Below are positions 4,287 to 52,882 of a stretch of 64,000 bases of DNA, one piece after another. Location: positions 245 to 64,244 of the forward strand of contig JBFLFX010000001.1 in NCBI GenBank assembly GCA_041859815.1, in the 5' to 3' direction. Source of the DNA: Dysosmobacter sp. (GTDB lineage Bacteria > Bacillota > Clostridia > Oscillospirales > Oscillospiraceae). Position numbers and translations under genes: made by a program. The notes beneath the pieces were generated by a model. That model made no database searches and was not told the origin of the DNA. It saw only the letters and a program-made list of their open reading frames with translations. Positions within the stretch are counted from its first letter, which is position 1, and each line of letters opens with the position of its first letter.

Positions 4287-4390
4287 AGCGTCTCCTCCGT
4301 ATGTTGAAGTCGTTGCCGCGCCGCTTTTTTCAGCGCGCCGGCGAACGCCATTATAGCACAGCGGCTTTGTCCGCGCCAGAAAAAACGATG

Positions 4391-4413
4391 GACGCGCCAG
4401 AAAAAGGCGCGTC
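4391..4413 (-). terminator. hairpin plus T-run on the minus strand
   Basis: gacgcgcc-agaaaaa-ggcgcgtc forms an 8-bp stem. On the minus strand it is followed by catcgttttttc. Confidence 0.4.
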
Positions 4414-4426
4414 CGTAAAGCGGATT

Positions 4427-4609
4427 TTATCTTCGGTTGGATTTTCTCCAGATTTTCTGTTCCTCCGCCGCGCGGATCAGCCCCTCCCGGAAGTCGGGAT
4501 GGGCAATGGAAATCATTTTCTCCGCCCGCTGCCAGGTGGGCAGGCCGGACAGGCATACCGCCAGCAGTATCGCAGAGCGCGCTGACAGCCGTTTTGCCTG
4601 AAAGCGCGG
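4427..4609 (-). pseudogene. C-terminal remnant of an acetyl-CoA hydrolase / CoA-transferase family gene
   Basis: A 61-codon open minus frame ends ...[39 protein letters not shown]. The IAHPDFRE.L motif is typical of the C-terminus of 4-hydroxybutyrate / butyryl-CoA:acetate CoA-transferases. An upstream in-frame TAG is present and no N-terminal part exists. Confidence 0.4.
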
Positions 4610-4734
4610 CTATTCAGTTCAGATTGACGATGGTCAGTTTATAAAAGCAGGCGTAAACCGCTGAACCGCAAACCGCCCAAATTGCAACGGCACGGTTCGG
4701 AATCCCCATCCTATCTTGCTGTGATTGCAAAAAA

Positions 4735-4766
4735 GGCTCGCGCCCGGTAGGACGCGAGCCTTTTTT
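4735..4766. terminator. bidirectional intrinsic terminator
   Basis: ggctcgcg-cccggtagga-cgcgagcc is flanked by an A-run and a T-run. It lies directly downstream of the minus-strand ABC gene. Confidence 0.7.
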
Positions 4767-4780
4767 GCGGGAACGGAACG

Positions 4781-7504
4781 CTATTCTGTCCGCAGCGCAA
4801 CCACCGGGTCTTTTTTTGCCGCCTTCCGGGCGGGAATCAGGCCGCCCAGCAGGGTCAGCCCCACGCTGAGAGCAATGAGAATCAGCGCGTCTCTCACCGG
4901 AAGCACCGCGGTAATATTGGCAGATTTTGTCAGAGAGCGGATCAGCGCGTTGCCGGGAACCAGCAAAATCAGGGCGGCCCCGATGCCGATGGCGCCGGAG
5001 CAGAGTCCGATGATAAACGTCTCCGCGTTGAATACCTGCGAGATATTCCGTTTGGAGGCGCCGAGGGCGCGCAGAATACCGATTTCCTTGGTGCGCTCCA
5101 GCACGGAAATATAGGTGATAATGCCAATCATGATGGAGGAAACCACCAGCGACAGCGCCACAAACGCAATCAGCACATAGGAGATCACATTGACAATCTT
5201 TTCCACGGAACTGGTCAGCAGCGCCACGTAGTCGGTATAGCTGATTTTATCCGCGTCCGCCGCGGATTTGTTATAGTCCTTAATGCAGGCCGCAATGGCA
5301 TTCTTGCTGTCAAAGCTGTCCGCGTAAATGCTGACGGAGGACGGCGTGCCGCGATCCACCGCGCCGAAGGCCGCCAGATTGTCGGCGTAGCTGCCCGGCG
5401 TGATGCTGGTTTTATAGATGGTGAGCAGCACCCTGTCCGAAGGATGCTTCAGGTAGCTGTCCAGCATGGCGGCCAGCGTGCTCTCATCCGCCTGCTCCAG
5501 CGCGGCAAGGCGCTGCGGCTGATTGGCGTACTGGCTCTGGGCAATGGAGCGGAACATCTCCGCCTTGTCGGAAATGCCCAGGTTGGAGAGATACCGCCTG
5601 GCGTCGGCAATCTTCGCGGCGTCGTTGGCCGGCTCAAAGGTCATGCCGTTGAGAACGCTGACCTTTGGGCTCTTTTTTTGTGCCAGCACCACGGCGCTGG
5701 CATCCGCCCGGTCAATGAGGTAGTTGGTCAGCAGACGGGTATATGCCAGCGGCGTGGAAATGGAGGCGGTTCCGTCATCCCCTTTCGGGCGGATTACGCC
5801 GGAAATCCGCAGTTTGACCGCACCTTTCAGCAGCGTCTCCGTTTTTGCCGCATCCGTGGCCGCCGATTCAAAATTTCCGCTGCTGTTTTTTTGATAGGTA
5901 TCGCAGGCAGGCAGCAGCTCCAGCGTCTGGGCGCACAAGGTGCGGTAACTCCATTTTCTCTCTTTCAGCGTTACCTTTTCGCCCGCGTCCAGCTTTTCCA
6001 TCAGCCGGCGATATTCGGAAGTCGGCAGGATTCCCAGTTCATACAGGGTTTTGGTGGAGATTTCGTTGTTTTTGTCCAGTACCAGAACCACTTCGTTGTA
6101 CTTCTCCGGCCACGTGCCGTAGAGCAGCTTGTAGTTGTCCGTCACGGCGGCGCTGACCGTCTTTCCCCTCACGCCGGGCAGCAGCTCCTGCATTCCGCCG
6201 GAGGAAGCCGATGTTCCCAGCATGGCGTTCCGTACGGCGTGCATTCCGCCTTTCGCGGAATTTCCGGAACTGTCCGACGTACCGTCCAGCGTGCTGCCGT
6301 CCGTGTTCACCAACGTTCCCTCGCTGTCGTGGGTATAGACGCTGAACGCGGTATCGTAGGAGTACACAATGCCGTTCACGCCTACATACCGGCGGATCTT
6401 ACTGCTGGGATTGTCCAGATACTTTTTAAACGCCGTGAGATTGTTCTTTTTCGTGTTGACGGATACGCCGGAAGCGCTTTTCAAATCCTGCCCCGTGGCG
6501 TACACGCCGTTCAGGCCGTGGCTCGTCTTTTTCGTCTGCGCCGCTCCTCCGGCCATCAGGCCGCTCACCTCCGTCGTCTCCGATTCAATGGTAATCGGGT
6601 AAGAGGTCATGGTACTTTTCTGAATATCGGCAATATAGTCGTTCACGCCCGTGGACAGCGCCAGAATCAGCGCGATGCCGATGATGCCGATGGAACCGGC
6701 AAAGGCCGTCAGCAGCGTACGCCCCTTCTTTGTCCGCAAATTGTTAAAACTGAGGGACAGCGACGTGCCGAAGGACATAGAGGCCCTCCCCATGGTGCGG
6801 TGTTCCGCGGGCCGTTCGTTTTCCACGGCGAACGGCGCGAAGTCGCCCGTAACCCTGCCGTCCCGGAGCCGCACGATACGGGTGGCGTAGTGTTCCGCCA
6901 ATTCCGGGTTGTGCGTCACCATCACCACCAGGCGATCCTTCGCCACCTCTTTGAGCAAATCCATCACCTGCACGCTGGTTTCCGTGTCCAACGCGCCGGT
7001 GGGTTCGTCCGCCAGCAGAATGTCCGGGTTGTTGACCAGCGCCCGGGCAATCGCCACCCGCTGCATCTGTCCGCCGGACATCTGGTTGGGCTTTTTATGG
7101 ATCTGGCTGCCCAGCCCCACCTTTTCCAGCGCCTGCACCGCAAGACGGCGGCGCTCTCTGCGCCGGATGCCGGAGATGGTCAGCGCCAGCTCCACATTCG
7201 CCAGGACCGTCTGGTGCGGAATGAGGTTATAGCTCTGGAACACAAACCCCACCGTGTGGTTACGGTAGGAATCCCAGTCCCGATCCCTGTACTTCTTCGT
7301 GGAAATTCCATTGATAATCAAATCGCCGCTGTCGTAGCGATCCAGTCCGCCGATCATATTCAGCAGCGTGGTTTTGCCCGATCCGCTGGGGCCGAGAACG
7401 GCGACGAACTCGCTGTCCCGGAGGTTCAGGCTGACTCCGTCCAGCGCCGTCTGTTTCAGATCGCCCGTTACATAGGTTTTGCTGATTTGCTGAATCTGCA
7501 GCAT
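4781..7504 (-). CDS. fused ABC transporter ATP-binding protein / FtsX-type permease (MacB-like)
   Basis: 907 aa. The N-terminal ATPase has GPSGSGKTT, LSGGQ-like MSGGQMQRVAIARAL and LLADEPTGALD. A long periplasmic-type middle region follows, then a C-terminal FtsX helix bundle. Confidence 0.9.
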   Translation of the reverse strand: MLQIQQISKTYVTGDLKQTALDGVSLNLRDSEFVAVLGPSGSGKTTLLNMIGGLDRYDSGDLIINGISTKKYRDRDWDSYRNHTVGFVFQSYNLIPHQTVLANVELALTISGIRRRERRRLAVQALEKVGLGSQIHKKPNQMSGGQMQRVAIARALVNNPDILLADEPTGALDTETSVQVMDLLKEVAKDRLVVMVTHNPELAEHYATRIVRLRDGRVTGDFAPFAVENERPAEHRTMGRASMSFGTSLSLSFNNLRTKKGRTLLTAFAGSIGIIGIALILALSTGVNDYIADIQKSTMTSYPITIESETTEVSGLMAGGAAQTKKTSHGLNGVYATGQDLKSASGVSVNTKKNNLTAFKKYLDNPSSKIRRYVGVNGIVYSYDTAFSVYTHDSEGTLVNTDGSTLDGTSDSSGNSAKGGMHAVRNAMLGTSASSGGMQELLPGVRGKTVSAAVTDNYKLLYGTWPEKYNEVVLVLDKNNEISTKTLYELGILPTSEYRRLMEKLDAGEKVTLKERKWSYRTLCAQTLELLPACDTYQKNSSGNFESAATDAAKTETLLKGAVKLRISGVIRPKGDDGTASISTPLAYTRLLTNYLIDRADASAVVLAQKKSPKVSVLNGMTFEPANDAAKIADARRYLSNLGISDKAEMFRSIAQSQYANQPQRLAALEQADESTLAAMLDSYLKHPSDRVLLTIYKTSITPGSYADNLAAFGAVDRGTPSSVSIYADSFDSKNAIAACIKDYNKSAADADKISYTDYVALLTSSVEKIVNVISYVLIAFVALSLVVSSIMIGIITYISVLERTKEIGILRALGASKRNISQVFNAETFIIGLCSGAIGIGAALILLVPGNALIRSLTKSANITAVLPVRDALILIALSVGLTLLGGLIPARKAAKKDPVVALRTE

Positions 7505-7616
7505 GGCTTCTCTCCTTCCCGGCTTCCGCCGTACGTCTTCGGCTGTTCTTCCTGTGTGTAAAATTCAGTATGGATCAGCCGGTTCCGGATTGCAAACGTT
7601 TTTCACGGAAACGATC

Positions 7617-9422
7617 TCAGGCCTCCGCTTTGCCGGCAAGGCGGAGCTGATACCGCTGCAGCGCCACGGAAAGAGAGATCTTTCGCTCCCCGCCGTCGGT
7701 AAACTGCAGCATAGCAATGTCACCCTGCCGGACGGCAATCTCGCCTAATCCGAACCGCCGATGCACCACCCTCAGCCCCGGAACATAAGGCGCGGTATCT
7801 TTAGGCGGCCCGGAACGGATGGCGCGGGCGCCGGGTTTCGGCGCCGGGCGCGCCGGCGCCCGCTTCGATTTCTCTTGCGGAAACAGGAAGGAGGGAAACG
7901 AGGAGGCCAGCTCCTCCCGCCGAAACCGGAACACAGAAAGCTGCCGCTTTGCCCGGGTCATGCCCATATAAAACAGCCTTCGTTCCTCCCCCAATGCAGC
8001 GTGTTCCTCCGGCGCGGCGTCCGGCCCCGGCAGCACCTTGGACAGAATACCGTCCGCCACGTCCGCCAAGATCACACGATCGTATTCCAGCCCCTTGCTG
8101 GAGTGAATGGTGGAGAGAATCAGATCGCTGTCGGGGTCCGCCGTGCCGCCCTTCACGATACCGCGCAGCTCTTCCAGACGCGCCAGCAGCCGCTCCGGCG
8201 TGGATTTCTCTGCGCCCAGCGCCTCCAGAATCTGCACCCTGCTCCTATCCGCACTGCGGCTCTCCAGATATTCCCCGTAGCCCATGAAATACACAATCCG
8301 GTAAACCGCCCTGTCCGCCTGTTCGTCCAGCAAATTGGTCAGGTGGGTGTGCAGCGCCCGGCAGCGCTGCTTCGTCCATGCGGAGCATTCCGCCAGCTTT
8401 GACAGAACCGGCAGAATCGGCTTCTCCGTCCGGGGGCTCAAGGCAGCGGCTTTCTCCGCCGCGGCTTTGCTGATGCCGGAACTGAATTTGTAATAAATCC
8501 GCAGGAAGAGATCCCCGTCCGTGCCGCCGCGGGCAAAGCGGATGATATTCGCCACGTCCCGCACCGTCCGATTCGTGAAAAAGCCGCCGTCCGTCCGGCG
8601 GCAGCGGTAGCCAATGCCCCGGCGGTTCAGCAGGTCGATGGCCGGCAGGGCGCTGTCGTTGTCCCGGTACAGCACCGCCGTCTGCGCCCGGCGGTCGTAA
8701 ACGGAAAGCTCCTCCACCGCCGGGCTGTCGCCGCGGGTGGGCTGAATGTGCTTGCGATGCCGCTCCCGGTTCTGCTGGATAAAGCGATCCGCCGCCTGCA
8801 CAATCTGCCGGGTAGAGCGGTAATCCCGCTCCATCAGCAGCACTTTCTCACCGGGATAAGCCTTTTCAAAGGATGTCAGCGCCGCCGGATCCGCGGCGCG
8901 AAAGCCGTAAATGCTCTGATCCTCGTCGCCCACCATAAAAAGATTCCGCCCGGTCAGCAGGCGGAGGATGCCGTGCTGAATTTTGGAGGTATCCTGCGCC
9001 TCGTCCACGCAGAGATACGGATATTTTTGCCGGAACGACCGCAAAATTTCCGGGCAGCGGCGGAGAATCCGATCCGCGTAAATCATCTGATCGTCATAAT
9101 CCATCAACCGCCCAACCGCCGCAGGGATGTTCTGTTCCGTCACGCCGACGTATTTTTCAAGCGCTTCCCGTCCCCGTTCCATCTCCTCCAGCAGCGCGTT
9201 CAGCACTGCCGCCGGATGTGCGGAACCGGTATAGAGCCCCGTGGTTTGCAGATAGCAATCCTTTGGAATTGTAAAATAGCTCAACACGCCGGTGAGACGG
9301 CCTTCTTCAAAATATCCCAGCAAACCGCAGTCGTCTTGCCATGCGCATCTCTCAAACTCCCGCAAAGGCCGGGATTCCGTGGGGTAAAGCGGATAACTCC
9401 GCATTCTCGAATCGCCGCACAA
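7617..9422 (-). CDS. UvrD/PcrA-family helicase-like protein lacking the Walker A region (possibly a pseudogene)
   Basis: Helicase motifs II (CVDEAQDTS), III (VGDEDQSIYGFRAA), V/VI (STIHSSKGLEYD, RRLFYMGMTRAK) and a C-terminal VHRRFGLGEI tail are present. No GxGKT/S motif is present. The first ~100 aa are unrelated, and no SD precedes either candidate start. Confidence 0.7.
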   Translation of the reverse strand: MCGDSRMRSYPLYPTESRPLREFERCAWQDDCGLLGYFEEGRLTGVLSYFTIPKDCYLQTTGLYTGSAHPAAVLNALLEEMERGREALEKYVGVTEQNIPAAVGRLMDYDDQMIYADRILRRCPEILRSFRQKYPYLCVDEAQDTSKIQHGILRLLTGRNLFMVGDEDQSIYGFRAADPAALTSFEKAYPGEKVLLMERDYRSTRQIVQAADRFIQQNRERHRKHIQPTRGDSPAVEELSVYDRRAQTAVLYRDNDSALPAIDLLNRRGIGYRCRRTDGGFFTNRTVRDVANIIRFARGGTDGDLFLRIYYKFSSGISKAAAEKAAALSPRTEKPILPVLSKLAECSAWTKQRCRALHTHLTNLLDEQADRAVYRIVYFMGYGEYLESRSADRSRVQILEALGAEKSTPERLLARLEELRGIVKGGTADPDSDLILSTIHSSKGLEYDRVILADVADGILSKVLPGPDAAPEEHAALGEERRLFYMGMTRAKRQLSVFRFRREELASSFPSFLFPQEKSKRAPARPAPKPGARAIRSGPPKDTAPYVPGLRVVHRRFGLGEIAVRQGDIAMLQFTDGGERKISLSVALQRYQLRLAGKAEA

Positions 9423-9565
9423 CGCTCACGCAAGCTTTGACGCTGTTGCAGTCTCAGATTTTTGTAGTTTTCTGATCATTACATTTCCCTTTGCGTCCGC
9501 TGAAACCGTTCCATTCATGATTTCCGGACACTTCTCCCGTATCAATCCGCGTCCCCGGCAAAGGC

Positions 9566-10015
9566 TCAGCGGAGCCGCACCGTCCAGTTCCCGCCGCAAA
9601 CCGCGTACTGAAATTCGGTAAGCGCGTCACTCTCCATCACCCGCAGCAGCTCCGGCAAATCGTCCACAGCGGGGATGTCTTTCAGGTCTTCCCGGTGCAC
9701 CCACTCCATCGCCCCTTCCTCAGAGGATTCCAGTTCGCCGGAAAATTCGTCCGCCCGGAAGAGCAGCACCACATAGCGGCCGCCCTCGATGGGAAACTGC
9801 TTCACGCCGCAGAGCACCGGATGCGCCACGCGCAGCCCGGTTTCCTCCTTCATCTCCCGCGTCACGGCGTCTACAAAGGATTCCCCCGGCTCCACATGGC
9901 CGCCGGGCAGCGCGTAGCCGTGCCAATCCGCTTTGAACCGGTTCTGCAGGAGAATTTCTTCTCCGCGGCGCAGCAGGCACAGCACCGTCAGCTCCACGCG
10001 CTCCGTCCTGCCCAT
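9566..10015 (-). CDS. NUDIX hydrolase (MutT-like)
   Basis: Nudix box GGHVEPGESFVDAVTREMKEETGL. Confidence 0.9.
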   Translation of the reverse strand: MGRTERVELTVLCLLRRGEEILLQNRFKADWHGYALPGGHVEPGESFVDAVTREMKEETGLRVAHPVLCGVKQFPIEGGRYVVLLFRADEFSGELESSEEGAMEWVHREDLKDIPAVDDLPELLRVMESDALTEFQYAVCGGNWTVRLR

Positions 10016-10554
10016 CAGTTCTCTCTCCCGTCAGGCGATTGGTTTGCCCATGCCGTCGCCCGGCATTCCAGATCCTTTACAAAGGCGTCCTTGCCGTCGC
10101 AGTATGCCCCAATATCCCACTCAAACTGGCGGGCAAGCCGGATTTTCAGTTTCCCGTACGCGGCGGCGTCCGCCGGGTGCGTACGGAGAAAATCCCGGAC
10201 AGCCAGATGGCGGCGGATTTCCCCCGCGCTGCCCTGTCCGAACACATGGACATGAACCGTCTCGCCGTCGCCCCAGCCCTTGCGGAAGTAGCGCCGCCCG
10301 GGAATGCCGTACTCCCCCATGGCCTCATAACCGGCCGCCGCAAACTGCGGATTTACCGCGTCCACCGCCGTAATGTCCCGCACCACCGGCAGAATGTCGA
10401 TAATCGGCTTTGCCGCAAGTCCCGGCACCGCCGTGCTGCCGATGTGATACACCGCCGCACAGTTCTCCCCCAGGATTTCCCGCACCACCGCCGCCTCTGC
10501 CGCGTACCGCGCCGCCCAGGCGGGGTCAAATTCCGTTACAACCACATGACGCAT
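10015..10554 (-). CDS. GrpB family protein
   Basis: Trimmed to MRHVVVTEFDPAWAARY...HIGSTAVPGLAAKPIIDILPVV, which is typical of GrpB/UPF0157. GGGGG precedes the ATG at 10554. The stop overlaps the NUDIX start by 1 nt. Confidence 0.85.
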   Translation of the reverse strand: MRHVVVTEFDPAWAARYAAEAAVVREILGENCAAVYHIGSTAVPGLAAKPIIDILPVVRDITAVDAVNPQFAAAGYEAMGEYGIPGRRYFRKGWGDGETVHVHVFGQGSAGEIRRHLAVRDFLRTHPADAAAYGKLKIRLARQFEWDIGAYCDGKDAFVKDLECRATAWANQSPDGREN

Positions 10555-42280: not shown

Positions 42281-42557
42281 GCAGACGCACGGCTGCTGCC
42301 GGCGCTGTCAAAGCCGCTGCGCGGCGTGGCGCTCTGCGCCGCGGCAGTTCTACTTGATTCAGTTCAAAATTCAACATCATACATAAAGCACGCGGAGCTG
42401 AAGCTGGCTCCGCGTGCTTTTATCAAATAAAATGCGGGAGCAGCCTGCGCAAAGGTTGCTCCCGCGGAGAGAGGAAGAAAAGAACGTGAAAAAACGTCAG
42501 CTCTATCGAATCCCCAACAGATTGATGAACGATGCGGCATTGACCTACAGTGCCCGG
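42281..42557 (+). repeat. copy B of the ~270-bp repeat (partner at 24241..24509)
   Basis: See copy A. Here the repeat continues into the intact HTH gene that starts at 42486. Confidence 0.7.
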
Positions 42558-43202
42558 CAGGCGGGCAATGCGCTGTACAGCAAACGCAGCCGCCTCGGCC
42601 AATGTGTAATGAGCCTGGCCTATCTTGCAAAAGTGTCCGCGTGCAGTATCCCCACCGTCCGCAAAGCGGCGGAGGAGCTGGAAAATGCCGGCTACATCCG
42701 CCGCTGCCGCAATTATCAGTACAGCGAACAGGCCGGCCGCGTCGTCTACGCCCGCACAACCTATGTCTGCACGCTCTCAACGGCCCGGGATTATACGTTG
42801 GTTCCCCGCGAGGTATTTAGCTGGGAACTGACTTCCGGAGCGTTCTGCGTTTGCCTGTGCCTGTTCCAGCAGGCGGGCAATTCCGGCCGCGCGTTTCCGG
42901 CAATCCGGCGCATCGCCCAGCTGCTTGGCATGGGCTATGCCACGGTCTGCCAGGCGCTGGCGCTCCTTCGTAATCAGAGATTGGCGCTTGTACTGCATTG
43001 GAAAAAGCGGAACCACGCCTTCAGCATGAATTCTTACTTTATGCAGGGACGCGGGCAGCGGCAGGAAAAGGACTTTTTCGCATTGCCGGGCGCTTTCTTT
43101 CGTTCTTTTCTACACTCTATTGTAGATTTTGCAAGGACGGAAAGCAATTCCCATTTGCTATCCGGGGGAGTCTCATTTTTTGCAAACTGCCTTAGGACTT
43201 AG
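42486..43202 (+). CDS. helix-turn-helix / winged-helix protein typical of clostridial integrative elements
   Basis: GTG start after AGAGGAAG. Two HTH-like units are present (MSLAYLAKVSACSIPTVRKAAEELENAGYI and RRIAQLLGMGYATVCQALALLRNQ). Confidence 0.5.
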   Translation: MKKRQLYRIPNRLMNDAALTYSARQAGNALYSKRSRLGQCVMSLAYLAKVSACSIPTVRKAAEELENAGYIRRCRNYQYSEQAGRVVYARTTYVCTLSTARDYTLVPREVFSWELTSGAFCVCLCLFQQAGNSGRAFPAIRRIAQLLGMGYATVCQALALLRNQRLALVLHWKKRNHAFSMNSYFMQGRGQRQEKDFFALPGAFFRSFLHSIVDFARTESNSHLLSGGVSFFANCLRT

Positions 43203-44050: not shown

Positions 44051-44720
44051 GAAACAGTTAAGGGCATTTTTCCAAATATTTGTTGAGTTTCGTCTTGCTT
44101 GGCGGTACAATGCTTTTGTTCCGTGAGGGACGGTTATTGCGCCGGTCATCTGCATCTTTGAAAAAAGCGGCGCTGGCCAAGCGGTCATACCGGCGTTTTA
44201 ACATACGGAGGGAAAGGAAAAGACCCTCCCTTTTCAGGAGAGTCTTACCACGACGATGCACCTTGAAAAACAAACAACGTAATAACCAGATAAAAACAGT
44301 TAACCCAGCTATTATCAAGATTTATTCAAAATTTCCTGCTTTACAGGATATGCTGGATTGCCTTTGGATATACAGCAAAGAATTTGAACGAAACAGTCAG
44401 CAGGCCATTAGAAGGCCAGCACTGGGAAAACCACCGCCGGGCGGCACGGCTCCCCTGCATTCGTCCTGTGCCATGATCCATCTATTGGGATGGGAGCCGG
44501 GCCGGATTAAAGAAGTTGCCATGAAACGCTGCTTTCCCATGATACTTCCTCACGGCCCCGCATGAACTTGCCGGGGAGGCTGCGCGGGTACGCAGACCTA
44601 TGCTATGCGCCATCAATAGGGCGGTTCCTTCGCTGATTTTCTTATAAATCTGAGGCAAAGGCGCATCTGCTTACTGCACCTTTGCCTGAGAGCCATCTGG
44701 CGAAGGGAAAAGACTTTCAA

Positions 44721-44757
44721 TGGAGCTGGATGCGAGATTTGAACTCGCGACCTCTGG
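44721..44757 (-). other. tRNA 3'-end fragment (variable loop, T-arm, acceptor and CCA); putative attachment-site remnant
   Basis: The minus strand reads ccagAGGTCGCGAGTTCAAATCTCGCATCCAGCTCCA. It has a canonical T-stem/loop (GCGAG-TTCAAAT-CTCGC), a 7-nt acceptor 3' strand, a discriminator and CCA. No matching 5' acceptor, D-arm or anticodon arm lies upstream. Confidence 0.7.
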
Positions 44758-45115: not shown

Positions 45116-47644
45116 TCACAGCATATTGCACTGGTTTGCAAATTTGATTCTTTCCAACTTGAAGTTTGACTCGGCAAGGGATGCGGCCCAGAGACTGACC
45201 ATCTGATAAATCTGTGTTTTCATTTCATTTTTGGAAAGTACGCGGGTTTGTGTGGAATCGGCACCGTTTATCTTGTCGTAATTTCTACGGCGTTTATACT
45301 CAAACCGTACAAGCTCTCCAAGCTCCTCCTCTGAAAAAGCCGGGTTCTCCGCCTTGTCATCGACATAGAGAACGTCGTATTGTATAAGCAAAAGCGCTTC
45401 AGGAATGTTTTTAACATGATCTCGGTAAAAGCCCTTTTGAAATTCGTCCAGCCTTTCCCATGGCATGGAAGTGTTATCGCCGGTAACGGCAATGGAATTT
45501 TCCAATACATTATATTTGTCCCGTAGCAGCTGCGCTATGATATCGACCTTTTCGCTAAAAATAGCATCGTGCATCATATATCTCAAGAACTGCTTTTCAT
45601 CAAGATGAAGCTTAAGCTGCTCCTTTGGAGGCAAAGACGACTGCTCCCATTTTTTGGCCTGTGCCAATGTACTCATATCCATAATGGCTTCCACCGATCT
45701 TGATTCATGTTTGTATTTTGGTATTTTGAGCATAGCCCTGAGAACACCATCATCAATCTGCGCTTCTCCCTTTTCGTTAATTAAATGCGGAAGCTTTTGT
45801 TCAATCAACGACCGAATCAGCATAGCCCTTCTAAGCATAAAGAGCTGGTCGTTGTCGTCGCTTTGATTAGGTCCGAGTATATTGATATAACCCCTCAAAC
45901 GGCTAACAAAATCAGGCCCTTTGTTTGCTTTAAATTCATTCAAAAATATCCGCTTATTGTCTTCGCCTTCAATTTTCTCTCCGCAAAATTCTGAAAACGA
46001 ACTGCTGGTTCCTCCGACAAAAACGAAGATCGCCTTTCCGATCGGGTGAAAGGTTTCCTCGCCCCTGTAAACGCCATCCTGCATAGGAGACAGAAAATAT
46101 TTTAGCCATCCGAGGTTTCCTTCAAAGTAAGTGTCGAATTCGTCAAACACAACAAGCGGAATTTTCCCCATAAGATTTAAATCACTTATTTTATGAAATG
46201 CCGTTTGTAGTTCAAGAGGTGTTGAAAATTGAGAAATATTATAATTCAGCTTTTGAATGTCTTCAGGAAATGTGCTTGTTGCCATCTCGGTAAGCCCGTA
46301 GGATTTACCGGAACCCGGCGTTCCGAATATGGCGATGGATAGCGGACGAATAGTATTCTTGGATGAGATATATTCCGAGATCAGATTGTGTATAGTTCGG
46401 TAGCTTTCAATTTCGATCCTGTCAACTGTTTTCAGCTTGCCGAATCTGGCGGTAGGGATACGCATAAGGACATTTTCCTCGCCGTTTTTAACCAGATCAT
46501 AAGCCATTTGCGCAATACTCGCGGAACTTTTTCCTTGTAAAATGCACCAGCTGTCCTGATAGTCCCTGTTTAAAACACTTGGGATTTTTACGTCCTGTAT
46601 ATGATTCAGGATAGTCATATCGGTGGAATTCCGCTCAAATATTAGAGGGTTGGGGAAAAGGAAAGAATCCGGATTTCCCCCAAAACCATAATGAAAGCAT
46701 TTTCTGATTGCATTCATCCCTTCACGAATGCCTTGGGAAATCAAGGTTGAAAGTTCATCCGTTTCTTCTCCAAAAAAGGTGGCAGCGAGCCCCGCTACAA
46801 AGGCGGATGTAAGCCCGTACATTTTCCCCAAAGCCTTTTGCTCGAAGTCTCCCTCAAACTCATAAGGCAAAAAGTATAAGCGGGCTTCAGGATTGCTGTC
46901 ATTTTTATAATAGATAACGCCTTCCAATCCAAACAGGACAATCAGATGTCTGCATTTTGACAGGAAAGACAGGCTCGGGTTATTGCTGAGCTGCCAGACG
47001 AAATCAAGGGCTGTCTTCTCCCAGGACAGGCTTTTGCTGATATTGACACCTTTTGAACGGAGGTCGTCGGCATTAATGATGGCGATGGTGTTGTCATTTT
47101 GATACTGGCCTAATTGCTGCCAAAGAGCGCTTCTTCCAGTTGGATTATCCATTTTATACAAAACAATCGGCGTTTCCCCTGGGCTTTTAATTGCAGACGG
47201 CCAGTAACTCTCATCGTTATTAAAACCATTGTTTTCGTCATCTATGATAACGATTCGGGCATCAGAAGCATCGTCTTCTATAGGAAGCAGCCCCGGATTC
47301 CCGCTTGCCGTGCCGGAGAGCCCCATAAACCGGCCCACTCTGTAGACCTTTTCCTTTTTCCTATCGGCAGAAGAAGGAAAAGGTTCGATCTCAACAAATG
47401 AGTGTAAAAAACGATCGGTATAAGGACCGATGCCCTTTGGAATAGACGGAGAAATAATCTGTTTTCCGGTCGCCAACGCAGTCATTTCCGCCAAAAGCAA
47501 TGATTCACCCGGCTTAGATATACTGTGCAAATTAGTTCTATTTTTCCAGTTTAAACCTTCATGTCCCTGTGGCAGCACACTCCACATCAGGGTATTGATA
47601 CATATATCGCCCGTAACGACAATTTTAGTCTCTTGATTTTTTAT
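45116..47644 (-). CDS. large P-loop NTPase: degenerate ribokinase-like N-domain, AAA ATPase core and two RyR-like C-terminal repeats
   Basis: Walker A is IFGTPGSGKSYG and Walker B is IPLVVFDEFD. The listed ORF starts at the ATG at 47587 with no SD. The frame stays open upstream to an ATA (47644-47642) placed 9 nt after AAGGAGG (47660-47654), adding IKNQETKIVVTGDICINTL. Confidence 0.85.
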   Translation of the reverse strand: MKNQETKIVVTGDICINTLMWSVLPQGHEGLNWKNRTNLHSISKPGESLLLAEMTALATGKQIISPSIPKGIGPYTDRFLHSFVEIEPFPSSADRKKEKVYRVGRFMGLSGTASGNPGLLPIEDDASDARIVIIDDENNGFNNDESYWPSAIKSPGETPIVLYKMDNPTGRSALWQQLGQYQNDNTIAIINADDLRSKGVNISKSLSWEKTALDFVWQLSNNPSLSFLSKCRHLIVLFGLEGVIYYKNDSNPEARLYFLPYEFEGDFEQKALGKMYGLTSAFVAGLAATFFGEETDELSTLISQGIREGMNAIRKCFHYGFGGNPDSFLFPNPLIFERNSTDMTILNHIQDVKIPSVLNRDYQDSWCILQGKSSASIAQMAYDLVKNGEENVLMRIPTARFGKLKTVDRIEIESYRTIHNLISEYISSKNTIRPLSIAIFGTPGSGKSYGLTEMATSTFPEDIQKLNYNISQFSTPLELQTAFHKISDLNLMGKIPLVVFDEFDTYFEGNLGWLKYFLSPMQDGVYRGEETFHPIGKAIFVFVGGTSSSFSEFCGEKIEGEDNKRIFLNEFKANKGPDFVSRLRGYINILGPNQSDDNDQLFMLRRAMLIRSLIEQKLPHLINEKGEAQIDDGVLRAMLKIPKYKHESRSVEAIMDMSTLAQAKKWEQSSLPPKEQLKLHLDEKQFLRYMMHDAIFSEKVDIIAQLLRDKYNVLENSIAVTGDNTSMPWERLDEFQKGFYRDHVKNIPEALLLIQYDVLYVDDKAENPAFSEEELGELVRFEYKRRRNYDKINGADSTQTRVLSKNEMKTQIYQMVSLWAASLAESNFKLERIKFANQCNML

Positions 47645-47878
47645 TTTAAATAACCTCCTTGTTTTTGCGCTTTTTGGCTTACCTTGCTGAGCAGGGCTTA
47701 ACGTACTAACTATTTGTAGAGAAAATTAAAATCACAAACGCCACAGGCGCAATAAATCTGTATTTAACTGCAATCGTTTTTTCAAGGGATCTCATCATAT
47801 CACATAAACAGTTTAAATGATACAAATATATTGATAAATAATAAATAAAATAATTCTAATAATTATTTGAATATTATG

Positions 47879-47907
47879 TTGACATATTATTCTGATTGGT
47901 ATATGAT
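47879..47907 (+). promoter_or_regulatory. sigma-A type promoter, TTGACA-17-TATGAT
   Basis: Exact consensus -35, a 17-nt spacer and TATGAT. It lies 38 nt upstream of the Phd-like ATG, within the AT-rich divergent spacer. Confidence 0.55.
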
Positions 47908-47944
47908 GCATTTAGATAAAAGAAAAATATAGGAGAAAACAACA

Positions 47945-48226
47945 ATGAATATTTCTGCAAAGGCGATCGTCTCAAACTCCGATATGATAAAAAACTATAA
48001 AGGCTGCCGGGAAAAAGCAGAAAGTTTCGGTAAGATTTTTGTCTTGAAAAACAACCAGCCGGACGCCGTTTTATTTTCCATTACCGAATATGAAAGGCTT
48101 TCAGGTTTTATTGAGTATATGGAAAGCCTTGAAGATCAAGATATGGAAAAAGTCATCGAGTCGTTGCCAAAGGAAGGAATCCGCAGAGGATACTCATTTG
48201 ACCATTTAAAAAATGATTTAAAATAA
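47945..48226 (+). CDS. Phd/YefM-like antitoxin-fold protein, with no cognate toxin adjacent
   Basis: 93 aa. The N-terminal pattern SNSDMIKNYKGCREKAESFGKIFVLKNNQPDAVLFSITEYERL matches the Phd/YefM fold signature. AGGAG lies 9 nt upstream. Confidence 0.6.
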   Translation: MNISAKAIVSNSDMIKNYKGCREKAESFGKIFVLKNNQPDAVLFSITEYERLSGFIEYMESLEDQDMEKVIESLPKEGIRRGYSFDHLKNDLK

Positions 48227-48320: not shown

Positions 48321-48494
48321 ATGCTTTTGAAAGATCATTCATCAGACTGCGAAAAAAGTCTAAAAGTGCGAGTTAGTTGGCTTGTCGCCGGTATGGGTAT
48401 TGCAATTACTTCCATCTCGGCAATAGAAGTTCTTCTTGCTGTAAGGCGGAAAAAGAAAGCGCAAAATGAATTATTAAATAAGGAAACGATATAA
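48321..48494 (+). CDS. 57-aa single-TM protein translationally coupled to the SPFH gene
   Basis: Below the ORF-track cutoff. AGAGGGG lies 7 nt before the ATG. Sequence: MLLKDHSSDCEKSLKVRVSWLVAGMGIAITSISAIEVLLAVRRKKKAQNELLNKETI. Its TAA overlaps the SPFH ATG (TAATG). Confidence 0.45.
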   Translation: MLLKDHSSDCEKSLKVRVSWLVAGMGIAITSISAIEVLLAVRRKKKAQNELLNKETI

Positions 48495-49384
48495 TGAGCT
48501 TTACAGTTATTATTGCCGGTATTCTGATACTTGCATTTGTTGTTTTCTTCGCTGGCATCCGAGTCGTAAGGCCGACAGAACGCGGGTTGATAGAGACGCT
48601 TGGAAAATATACAAAATTCGCGCTTCCGGGATTCCATTGGGTGATTCCCGTAATACAGCGGCTTTACCGGATCAACATCACCGAGCAGATGGTCAATGCC
48701 GAGCCGCAGGAGATTATCACAAACGACAACCTGAACGCTACTGTGGACGCTCAGATCTACTTCAAGGTTAGGCAGGATGAGGAAAGTGTCAAAAGTTCCC
48801 AGTACAACGCCGCGAATTACAAATATCAAATCGTCAATCTTGCAAGAACGACCCTGAGGAATATCATCGGCACCATGTCGCTGCGCTCCGCCAACAGCGA
48901 AAGGGGAAAAATCAACACCGATCTCCTTCATACTCTTGAAGTCGAAACAGGAAAATGGGGCATCGAGATCGTCCGGGCGGAACTCAAAGAAATCGATCCT
49001 CCGAAGGACGTTCAGGAGACGATGAATAAGGTGGTCAAGGCCGAAAACGAAAAGATCGCGGCTATCGATTTTGCAACCGCCGCAGAGACGAATGCGGACG
49101 GCCTGAAAAGGGCTGAGATCAAGAAAGCTGAAGGCATAAGGCAGTCGCGAATCCTGGAAGCCGAAGGAGAAGCGCAGGCCATCAAGTTGGTTAACGAATC
49201 GGCGGAGAAATATTTTGTGGGGAATGCACAGCTTCTGAGAAAATTACAGGCGACTGAGACATCGCTGAAAAACAATGCAAAAATTGTCGTTCCCACCGGC
49301 ACGGAGCTGGTCAACGTGATCGGTGAGCTTGCGGGGGTTTTGCCGATTGAGAAGCCTGCTGCAAAGGCTCTGTCGAGAACATGA
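48494..49384 (+). CDS. SPFH/band 7 domain protein (stomatin/HflC-like)
   Basis: An N-terminal TM helix, then IRVVRPTERGLIETLGKY...VDAQIYFKV...IEIVRAELKEIDPP and a coiled-coil tail. Confidence 0.9.
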   Translation: MSFTVIIAGILILAFVVFFAGIRVVRPTERGLIETLGKYTKFALPGFHWVIPVIQRLYRINITEQMVNAEPQEIITNDNLNATVDAQIYFKVRQDEESVKSSQYNAANYKYQIVNLARTTLRNIIGTMSLRSANSERGKINTDLLHTLEVETGKWGIEIVRAELKEIDPPKDVQETMNKVVKAENEKIAAIDFATAAETNADGLKRAEIKKAEGIRQSRILEAEGEAQAIKLVNESAEKYFVGNAQLLRKLQATETSLKNNAKIVVPTGTELVNVIGELAGVLPIEKPAAKALSRT

Positions 49385-50382
49385 ATATGCCGCGCTTTCA
49401 ATCAAGACTGAAAAGCTATGATAATACATATAAAGACCTGTTCGTCCGCCATCAGAACAATCCAATTTTGACTGCCGAAGACTGGCCGTATCCGGTGAAT
49501 ACGGTATTCAATCCCGCGGCAACATATTTTCAAAACAAGGTGCTACTGCTGACCCGTGCGGAAGACCGAAGGGGATTTTCCCATTTCACAAAAGCCGTCA
49601 GCGAAAAAGGTGTTGTCAACTGGATGGTGGATACGCAGCCCACGTTTGAATCGGACCCGGAAAATTATCCTGAAGAGGCATGGGGAATTGAGGATCCAAG
49701 AATTACTCGGCTTGACGAACTGGACGCATGGGCAATCACCTATACCGCATATTCAAAATCCGGTCCCATGGTATCTCTTGCGCTGACAAAGGACTTTCAG
49801 ACGTTTGAGAGGATGGGTCCCATCCTGCCCCCGGAAGATAAGGATGCCGCTTTATTTCCAAGGAGAATTGATGGCAAGTGGGTTTTGATTCACAGGCCAA
49901 TTGTTACCTGCAGCGAACCCGGTGCGCATATCTGGGCATCAGATTCGGTTGACTTAAAGAACTGGAGCAATCACAGAATCCTCATTCCTGCGCGGGCAGG
50001 CGCCTGGTGGGATGCAAGCAAGGTCGGTTTGAGCGCGCAGCCGCTTGAAACACCGGAGGGCTGGCTGATTCTGTATCATGGCGTGAGACTGACCGCGGCG
50101 GGAGCCATCTACCGCTTGGGGCTGGCGCTTCTTGATCTTGAAAATCCGTTCAATGTTTTGCGAAGAAGCGACGAGTGGATATTCGGGCCTCAGGAATCTT
50201 ATGAAAAAGAGGGCGACGTGGGCGGAGCCGTATTCCCGTGCGGATGGATACTCGACCGCGAAACAGGAAAGGTCAGAATGTATTACGGTGCCGCGGATAC
50301 CTGCATTGCTCTTGCCACGGCAAATCTGAACGATTTACTTGAGTATATTAAATCCTGTCCGGAAGTGAAACAGGAAATATAA
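49381..50382 (+). CDS. GH130 family glycoside phosphorylase/hydrolase (beta-mannoside type)
   Basis: FNPAATYF, GIEDPRITRL..WAITYTAYS, KDAALFPRRIDGKWVLIHRP and MYYGAADTCIALATA. The ATG overlaps the SPFH stop (ATGA). Confidence 0.85.
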   Translation: MNMPRFQSRLKSYDNTYKDLFVRHQNNPILTAEDWPYPVNTVFNPAATYFQNKVLLLTRAEDRRGFSHFTKAVSEKGVVNWMVDTQPTFESDPENYPEEAWGIEDPRITRLDELDAWAITYTAYSKSGPMVSLALTKDFQTFERMGPILPPEDKDAALFPRRIDGKWVLIHRPIVTCSEPGAHIWASDSVDLKNWSNHRILIPARAGAWWDASKVGLSAQPLETPEGWLILYHGVRLTAAGAIYRLGLALLDLENPFNVLRRSDEWIFGPQESYEKEGDVGGAVFPCGWILDRETGKVRMYYGAADTCIALATANLNDLLEYIKSCPEVKQEI

Positions 50383-50424
50383 TAAGAATATATTAAGAAT
50401 GTTATTGCAAATATTATATGATGT

Positions 50425-50464
50425 CCGAGCCTGTTTTCCTTTCAGAAAACAGGCTCGGTTTTTT
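50425..50464 (+). terminator. intrinsic terminator after GH130
   Basis: ccgagcctgttttc-ctttca-gaaaacaggctcgg forms a perfect 14-bp stem, followed by TTTTTT. Confidence 0.85.
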
Positions 50465-50569
50465 GGCGCTGCATACGTAAAATTTGATGTCCGCGGCGAT
50501 AGTAATAAATTTGGTATTACGCATATCTGATGGTAGATGGAAACGCCAACATATGTGGAAAGGGGAAAA

Positions 50570-51652
50570 ATGAAAGCATTATTTCTTGCCGGCGGAATGG
50601 GGACAAGGCTTAGGCCTTTAACCGATAAGATTCCTAAACCGATGGTTCCGATTATGAACAAGCCATTACTTGAGCGGAGTATGGAGAATCTCAAAAAATG
50701 CGGGATAAATCAAATTGTTATCAGTACCTGCTACAAGTCCCAATATATAGAAAAATATTTCGGAGACGGCAGCAAGTTTGGGCTCAAAATCGAGTATATC
50801 CGCGAGGATACTCCTTTGGGAACGGGCGGCGCCATTAAAAATACCGGGCACTTATTTGATGATACCTTTTTGGTTTTCAATGCGGATATCCTTTGCAACA
50901 TGGATTTCATGGAACTTGTAAAATTCCACAAATCAAAATTGGCTGCCGTTACGATTGCCGTCACCCGGGTAAGCAATCCCTCCGCATATGGCGTGATCGA
51001 ATATGATAAAAACGGATATGCGCTCTCTTTTACAGAGAAGCCGAAAGCCGATGAAATTAAGTCCGATTATATCAACGCGGGAGTTTATGTGCTTGAGCCT
51101 GAAGTGCTTGGGGAAATTCCAAATGACCGACCGGTATCGGTAGAGCGTGAAATATTCCCCTTGCTATTGCGAAAAGGACACAAGGTCGCTGTATATAACG
51201 GCTGCTCCTACTGGATGGATATCGGTACACCGGAAAAATATCTTCAGACGCATGAAGACATCATGGCCGGAGATTGCCGGCTGTCAGGAGTTCGGTTTAA
51301 CAGCTTAGGCGTTATAAAAGGCTCCCAATCCGCCATAAACATCACTGCCGTAATTACCGGTCCTGTGTATATCGGTGATCGTGTGAAAATCGGGGCATAT
51401 GCAAAAGTCGGGCCGAATGCGGTAATTGGAGACGACGTACGCATTCATGCGGGCGGCAGCGTAAGCAACAGCATACTCTGGAACAATGCAGACATAGGAA
51501 GTCTCGCTGAAATGGACGGCATGGTTGCCGCTTCCAATTTTAAAATCCAGTGCGGAACCATTCCTCACGATAACACTTTGACCAGCAAAATAAATATAAA
51601 GTCTGACGGAAAAGCACTGGGAAAAGAGCTGATGCTCGGCGCAAGACTATAA
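50570..51652 (+). CDS. NDP-sugar pyrophosphorylase (mannose-1-phosphate guanylyltransferase-like) with a C-terminal left-handed beta-helix
   Basis: MKALFLAGGMGTRLRPLTDKIPKPMVPI plus hexapeptide repeats near the C-terminus. Confidence 0.85.
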   Translation: MKALFLAGGMGTRLRPLTDKIPKPMVPIMNKPLLERSMENLKKCGINQIVISTCYKSQYIEKYFGDGSKFGLKIEYIREDTPLGTGGAIKNTGHLFDDTFLVFNADILCNMDFMELVKFHKSKLAAVTIAVTRVSNPSAYGVIEYDKNGYALSFTEKPKADEIKSDYINAGVYVLEPEVLGEIPNDRPVSVEREIFPLLLRKGHKVAVYNGCSYWMDIGTPEKYLQTHEDIMAGDCRLSGVRFNSLGVIKGSQSAINITAVITGPVYIGDRVKIGAYAKVGPNAVIGDDVRIHAGGSVSNSILWNNADIGSLAEMDGMVAASNFKIQCGTIPHDNTLTSKINIKSDGKALGKELMLGARL

Positions 51653-51703
51653 TGCTGATTTTTTTCTGCCGCGCACCGACAAAAAGAAAAAGGAGTAACC
51701 AAT

Positions 51704-52882
51704 TTGATTTCTGAAATAACTATGAATATTGCATTTTTAAGTACATATCCGCCCAGAGAGTGCGGCCTTGCAACCTTTACACAGGATCTTGTAATGCAGC
51801 TGGGCAGGATGCATCCGGCAGGACGGAGCGGGATCATCGCCGTCAGCAACGAAAGTTTGCGGTATGATGATAACGTCATCATGGAGCTTGCGCAGAATGA
51901 CAGGAGCAGCTATACGCAGACGGCAAGCAAGCTGAATAATTCGGATATCGACCTTTTAGTCATCGAGCATGAGTTCGGCATCTATGGCGGTGAACGGGGC
52001 GAATATTTGCTGGATCTTATAGACAACCTGAAAATCCCTTTCGTAACGACGCTGCATACCGTGCTCCCAGAGCCGGATGCCAAACAACGGTATATTCTGA
52101 ATGTCCTTGGTCAAAAGGGCGACAAAATAGTCACAATGGCAAAAAATACGGTTAACATATTGGAAAATGTCTATGGGATCGATCCGTCGAAGATAGCGGT
52201 AATCAACCACGGCGTGCCATATATGCCCATGGAATGCAGAGAAACTTTAAAGGCTGAGAGTGGGTTGGAATACCGGTTCGTTATCAGCACGTTCGGCCTG
52301 CTCGGTCCTGGGAAAGGATTGGAATACGGGATCGAAGCGGTTGCGGATGTGGCAAAGAAGCACAAAAATGTGCTTTATTATATCCTCGGTCAGACTCATC
52401 CCGCAGTCAAAAAAGAATCGGGAGAAGATTACCGCGAGTCTTTAGAAGCGATGGTTGCAAACCTGGGGATCAGCGACAATGTAGTATTTGTAAATGCGTA
52501 TCTGACGAAAGCGGAAATCATCCGATACCTGATGCTTTCCGATATTTATATGACTCCTTATCTAAACAAGGATCAGGCGGTGAGCGGGACGCTGGCCTAC
52601 GCCGCCGGGTATGGCCGTGTGATCGTTTCAACACCATACAGTTACGCAAAAGAGATGCTGTCGCATGGCAGAGGCTTACTTACAAAGTTCAGGGATTCGG
52701 AATCAATTGCGGGCTGCATCGAATACGTGCTTGACCACCCGGAGGAAAAGAAACAAATGGAACAGAAAACATTAGAAACGGGAAAAACAATGATGTGGGA
52801 GAACGTGGGGGAACAATATCAAACTTTGTTTGCAAGCATTATAAAGCATAATATAAAGGCAAGGGATATGGTGACCGCATGA
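51704..52882 (+). CDS. GT4 family glycosyltransferase
   Basis: TTG start 8 nt after AAGGAG. IAFLSTYPPRECGLATFT, and a C-terminal GT-B donor region (VSGTLAYAAGYGRVIVSTPYSYAKEML). Confidence 0.85.
   Translation: MISEITMNIAFLSTYPPRECGLATFTQDLVMQLGRMHPAGRSGIIAVSNESLRYDDNVIMELAQNDRSSYTQTASKLNNSDIDLLVIEHEFGIYGGERGEYLLDLIDNLKIPFVTTLHTVLPEPDAKQRYILNVLGQKGDKIVTMAKNTVNILENVYGIDPSKIAVINHGVPYMPMECRETLKAESGLEYRFVISTFGLLGPGKGLEYGIEAVADVAKKHKNVLYYILGQTHPAVKKESGEDYRESLEAMVANLGISDNVVFVNAYLTKAEIIRYLMLSDIYMTPYLNKDQAVSGTLAYAAGYGRVIVSTPYSYAKEMLSHGRGLLTKFRDSESIAGCIEYVLDHPEEKKQMEQKTLETGKTMMWENVGEQYQTLFASIIKHNIKARDMVTA

Follow-up and report, generated by a model that had tools for sequence, protein, structure and literature searches.

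The stretch of DNA analyzed here, referred to below as the window, comprises 64,000 nucleotides of contig JBFLFX010000001.1 from the Dysosmobacter sp. assembly GCA_041859815.1. On its minus strand, at 45116..47644, lies a gene encoding a protein of 842 residues that joins an N-terminal PfkB-like domain, an AAA+ ATPase module, and a C-terminal tandem RyR domain. A smaller gene for a Phd/YefM-like protein diverges from it on the plus strand, and both are found within a block of low GC content. An earlier annotation of the locus, hereafter the original prediction, had described the ATPase as an orphan and had proposed that it forms, together with the toxin-less Phd-like gene, a candidate conflict or defense module. 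The gene is instead an intact, horizontally acquired member of a large uncharacterized family, and its distant relatives are found in operons of conflict type.

The extent of the gene was determined by translation of the open reading frame (ORF) and by full-length alignment of the product with 35 homologues of 54-92% identity. The gene is a single long minus-strand ORF of 2.5 kb with its stop codon at 45116-45118, and the Walker A and Walker B motifs noted in the original prediction are intact. A mechanically compiled ORF list has the gene start with an ATG at 47587, which would give a protein of 823 residues. The conserved N-terminal strand KIVVTGD is, however, encoded upstream of this methionine (M20), in a portion of the frame that stays open 5' of the listed ATG and encodes ...RRLFKIKNQETKIVVTGDICINTLMWSV. 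Since the aligned homologues begin with M-x-N-K-x-x-K-I-V-V-[TS]-G-D, the true N-terminus is placed 5' of the listed ATG. No in-frame ATG, GTG, or TTG lies upstream of M20 in the window ORF, and the 842-residue reading therefore requires a non-canonical ATA start codon at 47642..47644 (minus strand), which aligns with the ATG, GTG, and TTG starts of other family members.

Nine nucleotides 5' of the ATA is a Shine-Dalgarno sequence, AAGGAGG (47654..47660, minus strand), that is kept in relatives. The five closest independent loci (the window, L008, L001/L009, L010, and L004) share both elements in the same place, with a spacing of 7-9 nt across this clade of 74-100% identity, and in L004 an in-frame TGA is found five codons 5' of the ATA. 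Taken together with the alignment, the 842-residue gene looks to be initiated at a conserved AUA codon. Initiation at AUA in Escherichia coli reporters runs at approximately 1% of that at AUG or below, and the ATA start should keep expression of the ATPase very low.

A search of 5.8 billion proteins returned more than 380 full-length homologues with 50-92% identity, from Clostridium, Oxobacter, Pelosinus, Lawsonibacter, and other genera, and a scan of one genome per species found relatives in at least 483 species genomes, so that the gene is no orphan. Where the databases name these homologues, they call them "RyR domain-containing protein" or "Ryanodine receptor Ryr". The species found by the scan belong mostly to the Bacillota, with a few Planctomycetota, Chloroflexota, Desulfomonile, and methanogenic archaea. 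The N-terminal domain alone retrieved 1,499 representatives (50% clustering, E ≤ 1e-3), most of them proteins of 800-1,100 residues. Within the Firmicute branch, by which we mean relatives of at least 46% identity, mean column identity is 67% across genera. The family was found in 0 of 50,697 phage records and 3 of 72,556 plasmid records, with one real match in IMG/VR. The closest relatives are scattered among Lawsonibacter, Dehalobacter, Sporobacter, and Megamonas in a patchy phyletic distribution, and the window copy has a GC content of 42% in a genome of ~58% GC.

The window protein had no significant match in Pfam, NCBIfam, PADLOC, or PHROGs, and a single-sequence phmmer search against the PDB gave no match. 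Neither the ATPase nor the Phd-like protein matched any family of PADLOC-DB v2.0.0 at E ≤ 1. The literature searched contained no description of a PfkB-like/AAA+/RyR protein and no report pairing RyR with ribokinase, and the ten papers listed for SLATT together with RyR were all unrelated, in keeping with the original prediction, which had recognized no named system in this architecture.

Domain architecture

The N-terminal domain (residues 1 to ~345; 46610..47644, minus strand) was assigned to the ribokinase/PfkB fold from an AlphaFold2 model and Foldseek. The model of the window protein had a mean pLDDT (predicted local distance difference test score) of 71.8, with values of ~80-90 in the N-terminal third. 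The top 50 Foldseek matches in the PDB were all ribokinase-family enzymes (E 3.5e-7 to 1e-5, probability 1.00, TMt ~0.5), and the best of these was 6ilr_B (E 3.5e-7, probability 1.00, TMt 0.56). Pfam PfkB (PF00294) was unmatched by the window protein at E ≤ 0.01, and is not among the families matched by a set of 51 relatives. Conserved in the broad family are a GD motif in strand β1 and a GG-like motif, PGGA, and other invariant residues of the domain are D13, D136, S207, W208, and E264.

The position of the GAGD/GXGD motif of PfkB kinases is taken by GLTS (G277-L-T-S280) at the N-terminus of a helix spanning residues 278-290. The Firmicute branch has Ser280 throughout; across the broad family this position varies. 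Alignment with a bona fide PfkB kinase by hhalign was uninformative (probability 0.8%), and for this reason the correspondence of motifs with the PfkB kinases stays inferred, that of the GXGD site being drawn from motif order and secondary structure. Given the loss of the GXGD aspartate, the N-terminal domain is probably a ligand-binding pseudo-kinase. The degenerate ribokinase-fold sensor of the original prediction is thus supported at the level of the fold, with the GAGD motif replaced by GLTS.

The AAA+ module (residues ~431-660; 45665..46354, minus strand) was recognized by its invariant motifs and by matches of relatives to PF00004. Walker A (FGTPGSGKS, residues 440-448; 46301-46324, minus strand) and Walker B (VVFDEFD, residues 498-504; 46133-46159, minus strand) were both placed by alignment. 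These two motifs and the DFxSRLRG motif, which holds the Arg-finger/sensor, are invariant in the alignment of 35 sequences as well as in that of the 51 relatives. PF00004 matches 30 of the 51 divergent relatives at E ≤ 1e-3; the window protein matches AAA_14 alone, with an E value of 0.007. In a separate AlphaFold2 model of residues 375-842 the AAA+ core had pLDDT values of 30-70, and Foldseek on this low-confidence core gave a mixture of ORC, FtsH, Rubisco-activase, and RFC matches (E 5e-4 to 3e-2).

The C-terminal domain (residues ~695-835; 45140..45562, minus strand) is a tandem RyR domain of the RY12-like type, identified by profile, Foldseek, and alignment. A family profile that included divergent members matched the repeats of RyR1, RyR2, and RyR3 in the PDB with E values of 2e-20 to 1e-13, and Foldseek retrieved the RyR Repeat12/34 crystal structures 6uhs, 4esu, and 3rqr with a probability of 1.00 over ~170 columns. 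The likeness to bacterial RyR repeats that the original prediction had noted is thereby established as a tandem RyR fold, and its three-module architecture of degenerate PfkB-like domain, Walker NTPase, and RyR repeats was correct. Pfam RyR (PF02026) is present in 40 of the 51 relatives; the window copy is unmatched, and precomputed PF02026 is absent from its 33 closest homologues. Canonical members keep the motifs EHxRW ... GWxYG ... PW. In the window clade, which comprises these 33 homologues, EHxRW of repeat 2 is replaced by FEYKRRR with loss of the conserved His and Trp, the His of repeat 1 is replaced by Arg, and a 13-residue deletion in repeat 2 corresponds to the GWxYG...K...P loop. The degenerate motif and the deletion account for the failure of Pfam RyR to detect the window protein and its closest homologues.

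For RY12 of RyR1, which binds ADP and ATP, a role in sensing the ATP:ADP ratio has been suggested, and prokaryotic homologues of RY12 were found "in a variety of domain architectures" (PMC13642953). Type I Thoeris is blocked by the phage protein RyR Tad, which binds and sequesters gcADPR and cADPR (bioRxiv 10.64898/2026.06.04.730250). Among RyR domains, binding of an adenine nucleotide or ADPR derivative is known from these two proteins only. These two papers from 2026 have RyR repeats binding small molecules, and the present family, with ~1,500 cluster representatives, makes the role of bacterial RyR domains testable.

Gene neighborhoods and the proposed function

The divergent branch of the family was examined in 70 metagenome loci at 32-44% identity. 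At 48 of these, at least one neighbor encodes a TIR, DUF4062-STAND, SLOG-like/SLATT, or RyR protein. TIR neighbors were found at 15 of the 70 loci, fused to WD40, to an LVIVD propeller, or to a Bmp/PnrA-like nucleoside-binding domain, and DUF4062-NACHT/nSTAND1-TPR/WD40 neighbors at 12. A DUF4231/SLATT_1 protein of ~570 residues, or its N-terminal module of 180 residues alone, is present at 27 loci. This module matched members of the SLOG superfamily below threshold (YAcAr, E 0.003 and 0.045; YpsA, 0.006; DprA, 0.085 and 0.16), and in four loci (L156, L166, L168, and L169) the family protein itself carries this SLOG-like module at its C-terminus. Fusions of the family protein to TIR (P0153) or NUDIX (P0174) are rare. 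RyR-containing neighbors are encoded at 21 of the 70 loci, the typical one being a protein of ~590 residues with two N-terminal transmembrane (TM) helices, a TrkA_N/RCK domain, and a C-terminal RyR domain.

An operon consisting of the ATPase, a SLOG-like module of ~180 residues (alone or fused to DUF4231/SLATT_1), and a channel-like 2TM-RCK-RyR protein recurs in L157 (3266-10137), L145, L146, L111, L114, L152, L162, and further metagenome loci, and is often flanked by giant TIR or DUF4062-STAND-WD40/TPR proteins. The operon of L157 comprises the family gene, genes for a SLOG-like protein of 185 residues and a 2TM-RCK-RyR protein, and one for a TIR domain fused to a Bmp/PnrA-like domain (8383-10137); Bmp/PnrA-like proteins are a family of purine-nucleoside-binding lipoproteins. 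In L090, a RelA/SpoT-TPR-RyR protein of 985 residues (7393-10350) is encoded directly 3' of a family member with a C-terminal NUDIX domain (4320-7307). On plasmid pA of Methylobacterium sp. FF17 (L184, 1-10253), a family member annotated as "RyR domain-containing protein" has a giant SIR2-family protein, exceeding 2,000 residues, encoded ~1.4 kb away, with a transposase gene and an HTH gene between the two. From its gene content, the recurrent environmental operon looks like an undescribed nucleotide-signaling conflict system.

The neighborhoods of the Firmicute branch, to which the window protein belongs, were compared by clustering the neighbors of 83 loci all-against-all, and no conserved partner was found in these loci. 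The commonest neighbors are generic, namely ABC ATPases (16 loci, scattered), MCP/HAMP proteins (14), and response regulators (11), and azoreductase-like proteins (8), HxlR (8), nitroreductases (5), and Cof-type HAD hydrolases (5) recur weakly. Among the 138 immediately flanking proteins no Pfam family has more than 5 members and there is no enrichment of defense functions; PADLOC on the same proteins gave only background, consisting of scattered restriction-modification and ABC-like matches. A tblastn search of the window for TIR, DUF4062, STAND, SLATT, and RCK-RyR sequences returned nothing better than E 0.17. TIR, SLOG/SLATT, or STAND partners were found within 5 kb at 0 of 14 close metagenome loci, and none flank the gene at ~70 genome loci. 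In a single case (L006/L007), a relative of 67% identity adjoins genes for a HAD hydrolase and NiaR (HTH_11 + 3H) and the NAD-biosynthesis genes nadA/nadB/nadC.

The Firmicute branch, and with it the window gene, has lost all conflict partners and stands alone. The link to conflict systems made in the original prediction therefore holds for the distant relatives, 48 of whose 70 loci have such neighbors, and finds no support in the Firmicute branch, with neither a recurrent partner nor defense enrichment among its 138 flanking proteins. The window locus is the less informative branch of the ATPase family, yet it leads to the large family as a whole.

In Thoeris, a TIR protein makes a signal derived from ADP-ribose (ADPR), and a sensor of the SLOG or Macro type activates an effector. 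SLOG domains sense the ADPR-derived signals in these systems, and TIR, SIR2, and NUDIX proteins act on nicotinamide adenine dinucleotide (NAD) or ADPR. The best reading of the family, in which our confidence is evenly balanced, is that of an AAA+ switch gated by nucleotides, with its origin in an undescribed conflict system with signaling of the NAD/ADPR type. A small molecule containing ribose or adenine would occupy the PfkB-like pocket, the RyR cleft, or both; it could be the ADP/ATP pair or a NAD-derived signal of the ADPR type. Binding would gate assembly of the AAA+ module or its hydrolysis of ATP, and the module would then act on a target. In the divergent operons, the ribose-adenine signal would be made by a TIR-type enzyme and sensed by the RyR and SLOG-like modules carried on several proteins, with the SLATT protein, the RCK-RyR channel, and the AAA+ protein executing the response. 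The PfkB-like pseudo-kinase would provide a second pocket for a ribose-containing ligand. The window gene would retain the same ligand-gated AAA+ core, now on its own, and could serve as a single-gene abortive or stress switch or as a sensor of the energy or NAD state. The loss of partners, the degenerate RyR domain, and the ATA start are what lead us to view the window gene as either a leashed growth-arrest switch or a re-purposed physiological sensor.

Several points weigh against this nucleotide-gated switch. The conflict context is an argument by association from relatives of 32-44% identity, and the divergent branch may differ in function from the branch of the window. The window clade may have lost nucleotide sensing by its RyR domain, judging from the missing His and Trp of repeat 2 and the 13-residue deletion. 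The AAA+ core is modeled with low confidence and, given its mixed Foldseek matches, was not assignable to a clade. Ligand, target, and phenotype are all inferred for every member of the family, and the high conservation and housekeeping neighbors in the Firmicutes fit a physiological role as well or better.

Such a role is the subject of the foremost alternative, which has the protein in anaerobic Firmicutes as a housekeeping sensor or regulator of the energy or NAD/redox state. It would read the levels of adenine nucleotides or NAD metabolites and adjust a cellular process by means of its ATPase. We consider this possible, on the doubtful side. It is favored by identities of at least 50% over 850 residues across classes, by the chromosomal location of a gene essentially absent from phage and plasmid records, and by its ordinary neighbors, which include the weak recurrence of redox and HAD proteins and, in L006, NiaR and NadABC. 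The proposal that RY12 of RyR1 senses the ATP:ADP ratio (PMC13642953) fits as well. A housekeeping sensor is, however, at odds with the patchy distribution and the clear horizontal transfer (42% GC against ~58% for the genome), no conserved operon partner points to a pathway, and the wider family is embedded in TIR/STAND/SLATT contexts.

Another alternative sees the protein as a metabolic enzyme whose N-terminal domain, a working kinase or an enzyme of another kind, would act on a metabolite that contains ribose and is fused to a regulatory ATPase and RyR domain. The ribokinase fold is compatible with this, as is the conservation of the β1 GD and PGGA motifs and of D13, D136, S207, W208, and E264. 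An active enzyme is nonetheless improbable, with the position of the catalytic aspartate taken by Ser280 in the Firmicute branch and variable in the broad family, and with Pfam PfkB unmatched.

The Phd-like gene and the low-GC block

The Phd/YefM-like gene (93 codons; 47945..48226, plus strand) is the first gene of a rightward operon. Its product matches PF02604 below threshold (E 2.8e-5; 24.2 bits against a cut-off of 29.8) and TIGR01552 likewise (17.5 against 20.8), and the majority of its homologues carry precomputed PF02604. A consensus scan found the promoter-like sequence TTGACA-17-TATGAT at 47879..47907 (plus strand), with 11 of 12 positions matching, and the segment 47001-48000, which spans the spacer between the divergent genes, has a GC content of 0.386. 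No toxin-like ORF adjoins the Phd-like gene in the window, where the genes downstream are a membrane ORF of 57 residues and then SPFH. The divergent ORF behind this promoter, without an adjacent toxin ORF, is therefore as the original prediction described it. The operon continues at 48321..52882 (plus strand) with, by Pfam, the 57-residue membrane ORF, SPFH/Band 7, GH130, NTP-transferase, and GT4, and runs on to PGM/PMM and PMI at ~56.7 kb (56694).

The original prediction had suggested that the Phd-like protein could be the regulator or antidote of the ATPase, and had called for its conservation as a neighbor of ATPase homologues to be checked. Among the 87 loci searched, the Phd-like gene is near the ATPase gene only in the closest clade, of at least 75% identity. 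In the window and L008 the two genes are divergent and ~300 bp apart, and L010 holds to this arrangement with two Phd-like copies. In the Dehalobacter lineage (L001/L009) the genes are 2.6 kb apart, with Nramp and a gene for 110 residues between them. At least 1,292 proteins make up the Phd-like family, with identities of 72-99% for the top 120 homologues. Six of its members were looked up for context. In L174/L175 (90% identical), which lack the ATPase, ComFB precedes the Phd-like gene, and a gene for 55 residues, Band 7, and GH130 follow it. In L181/L182 it is followed by a gene for 165 residues, GH130, a glycosyltransferase (GT), and ManC; in L183 by two small ORFs and Band 7; and in L176 by a radical-SAM gene, with an NTP-transferase further on. 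Two Phd-like genes accompany a LOR gene in L178. The gene order of L179/L180 is identical to that of the window, and in L180, which was found through its Phd-like protein, the same block as in the window is preserved with the N-terminus of the ATPase at the contig edge. Throughout L174-L183, what follows the Phd-like gene is the same set of non-toxin genes or a related one. In all, the Phd-like gene is found without the ATPase in five independent contexts, three of which have the same SPFH/GH130/GT genes behind it.

Because this order recurs in Phd loci lacking the ATPase, the conserved partner of the Phd-like gene is the rightward operon. On gene order, the Phd-like gene is the leader of the SPFH/GH130/mannose operon and not a partner of the ATPase, and their adjacency is inherited synteny within one recently transferred block. 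The recurrence in Clostridia of an operon led by the Phd-like gene suggests that it encodes a Phd-fold transcription factor for a mannoside pathway and not an antitoxin. That the NTPase and the divergent Phd-like gene should form a two-gene defense or abortive-infection module, with the Phd-like protein as regulator or antidote, is accordingly very improbable. In its favor, the window, L008, and L180 all have the two genes side by side in divergent orientation, as does L010 with its two Phd copies, the pair in the window shares a low-GC island beside a tRNA fragment, and the ATA start suggests tight control of expression. These points are outweighed by the confinement of the Phd-like gene to one clade, by the 2.6 kb and two genes that separate the pair in the Dehalobacter lineage, and by the large Phd-like family with its five ATPase-free contexts. 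For annotation the case is a caution, in that a "toxin-less antitoxin" beside a large NTPase belonged to a carbohydrate operon.

On the other side of the spacer, alignment of the upstream regions of the window, L008, L001, and L010 delimits a conserved, putative promoter block of the ATPase gene at 47790..47832 (minus strand), within which TGATATGAT (47794-47802, minus strand) is a candidate extended -10 element. Inside the ~130-nt 5' leader of the ATPase gene, a terminator-like hairpin, GCGCCTGTGGCGT, with a T-run is found at 47738-47750 (minus strand). The leader is present in the window, L008, and L001 and missing in L010, and the hairpin is weaker in L008. An Rfam scan of the window detected no regulatory RNA in this leader, and since the leader is missing in L010 we do not propose a conserved structured element.

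The low-GC block extends from ~44 to 57 kb with 39-50% GC, compared to 55-62% over the window's first 22 kb. At its left edge is the 3' fragment of a tRNA of 37 nt (44721..44757, minus strand), comprising the T-arm, the 3' strand of the acceptor, and CCA, whose T-arm matches the tmRNA/tRNA clan. The low-GC island with a tRNA 3' fragment at its edge, as first proposed, is confirmed, and the fragment looks like the remnant of an att site. The window holds no second copy of the fragment, no intact tRNA, and no integrase; without a second copy or an intact tRNA, the island cannot be delimited by way of a tRNA repeat. The fragment marks the junction between a block with a DnaD-like/replication-initiator gene and the low-GC ATPase/mannose block. 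The DnaD-like gene (HTH_36; PHROG 186) is at 42414-43202 (plus strand), and low-GC ORFs with no known function lie at 40.3-41.6 kb. To the left of the tRNA fragment, a match to the Rfam pemK RNA motif (44536-44603, plus strand; 21.4 bits against a gathering threshold of 34.8, E 0.23) is probably due to chance.

The least probable of the alternatives is that the acquired window copy, with its ATA start and its degenerate, deletion-bearing RyR domain, has become a decaying remnant with hardly any expression or no function, since the 842-codon frame and all ATPase motifs are intact and the ATA, Shine-Dalgarno sequence, and degenerate RyR domain are kept across genera at 74-92% identity, which argues for purifying selection on this form of the gene.

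Comparison with known systems

Beyond the gated switch proposed for the window protein, we tentatively raise a wider possibility, in which we place less than even confidence. The PfkB-like/AAA+/RyR family would form the center of an as yet undescribed nucleotide-signaling immune system in which RyR domains act as host receptors for TIR-derived signals of the ADPR type, its other parts being the SLOG-like/SLATT effector, the 2TM-RCK-RyR channel, and TIR or STAND proteins. If this is true, the origin of the RyR repeat in animal calcium-release channels would lie in a bacterial immune sensor, the RyR Tad sponge of phages would act as a decoy of the host RyR sensor, and the stand-alone, RyR-degenerate, ATA-initiated copy in the window would be a simplified single-gene derivative. 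The operons offer a test of RyR repeats as native receptors for NAD-derived immune signals, and this bears on the origin of the calcium-channel domain.

The smaller neighbor resembles the Phd/YefM antitoxins of type II toxin-antitoxin systems in its sub-threshold N-terminal Phd/YefM match, but it has no adjacent toxin, is conserved at 74-99% over more than 100 clusters, and leads an SPFH/GH130/mannose-metabolism operon. With the PfkB/ribokinase kinases (PF00294), the window protein shares the α/β fold of ribokinase, the β1 GD motif, and a helix that begins at the site of the GXGD anion-hole helix. It differs from them in having 10-13% identity, no Pfam match, and GLTS in place of the catalytic aspartate, and in that the domain of the window family is ~345 residues long with insertions and is fused to an ATPase. 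The C-terminal 140 residues have the two-repeat fold of known RyR domains (PF02026), including RY12 and RY34 of RyR1-3, the bacterial structures 3NRT and 6UAG, and phage RyR Tad. The window family, however, fuses RyR to AAA+ and PfkB-like domains, and is neither part of a channel nor a small sponge, and the window clade lacks the repeat 2 His and Trp, carries the 13-residue deletion, and has no Pfam RyR match.

The operons of distant relatives resemble Thoeris-type systems in pairing TIR with SLOG-like modules (with or without SLATT) and RyR sensors, a logic of signal maker, sensor, and effector. They differ in their sensor set of PfkB-like, AAA+, and RyR domains; PADLOC on the window protein gave no ThsA or ThsB homologue, and the window locus is without a TIR, SLOG, or SLATT gene. 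Nucleotide-centric conflict systems built on SLATT and SLOG were reportedly described by Burroughs et al. in 2015. These systems and the NTP-dependent STAND conflict systems have components in common with the surroundings of the distant relatives, where SLATT_1, DUF4231, DUF4062, NACHT/nSTAND1, WD40/TPR, and TIR are all found. The paper on the STAND systems has no mention of RyR (Kaur et al. 2020; PMC7159879). The PfkB-like/AAA+/RyR protein appears to be an undescribed component of conflict systems.

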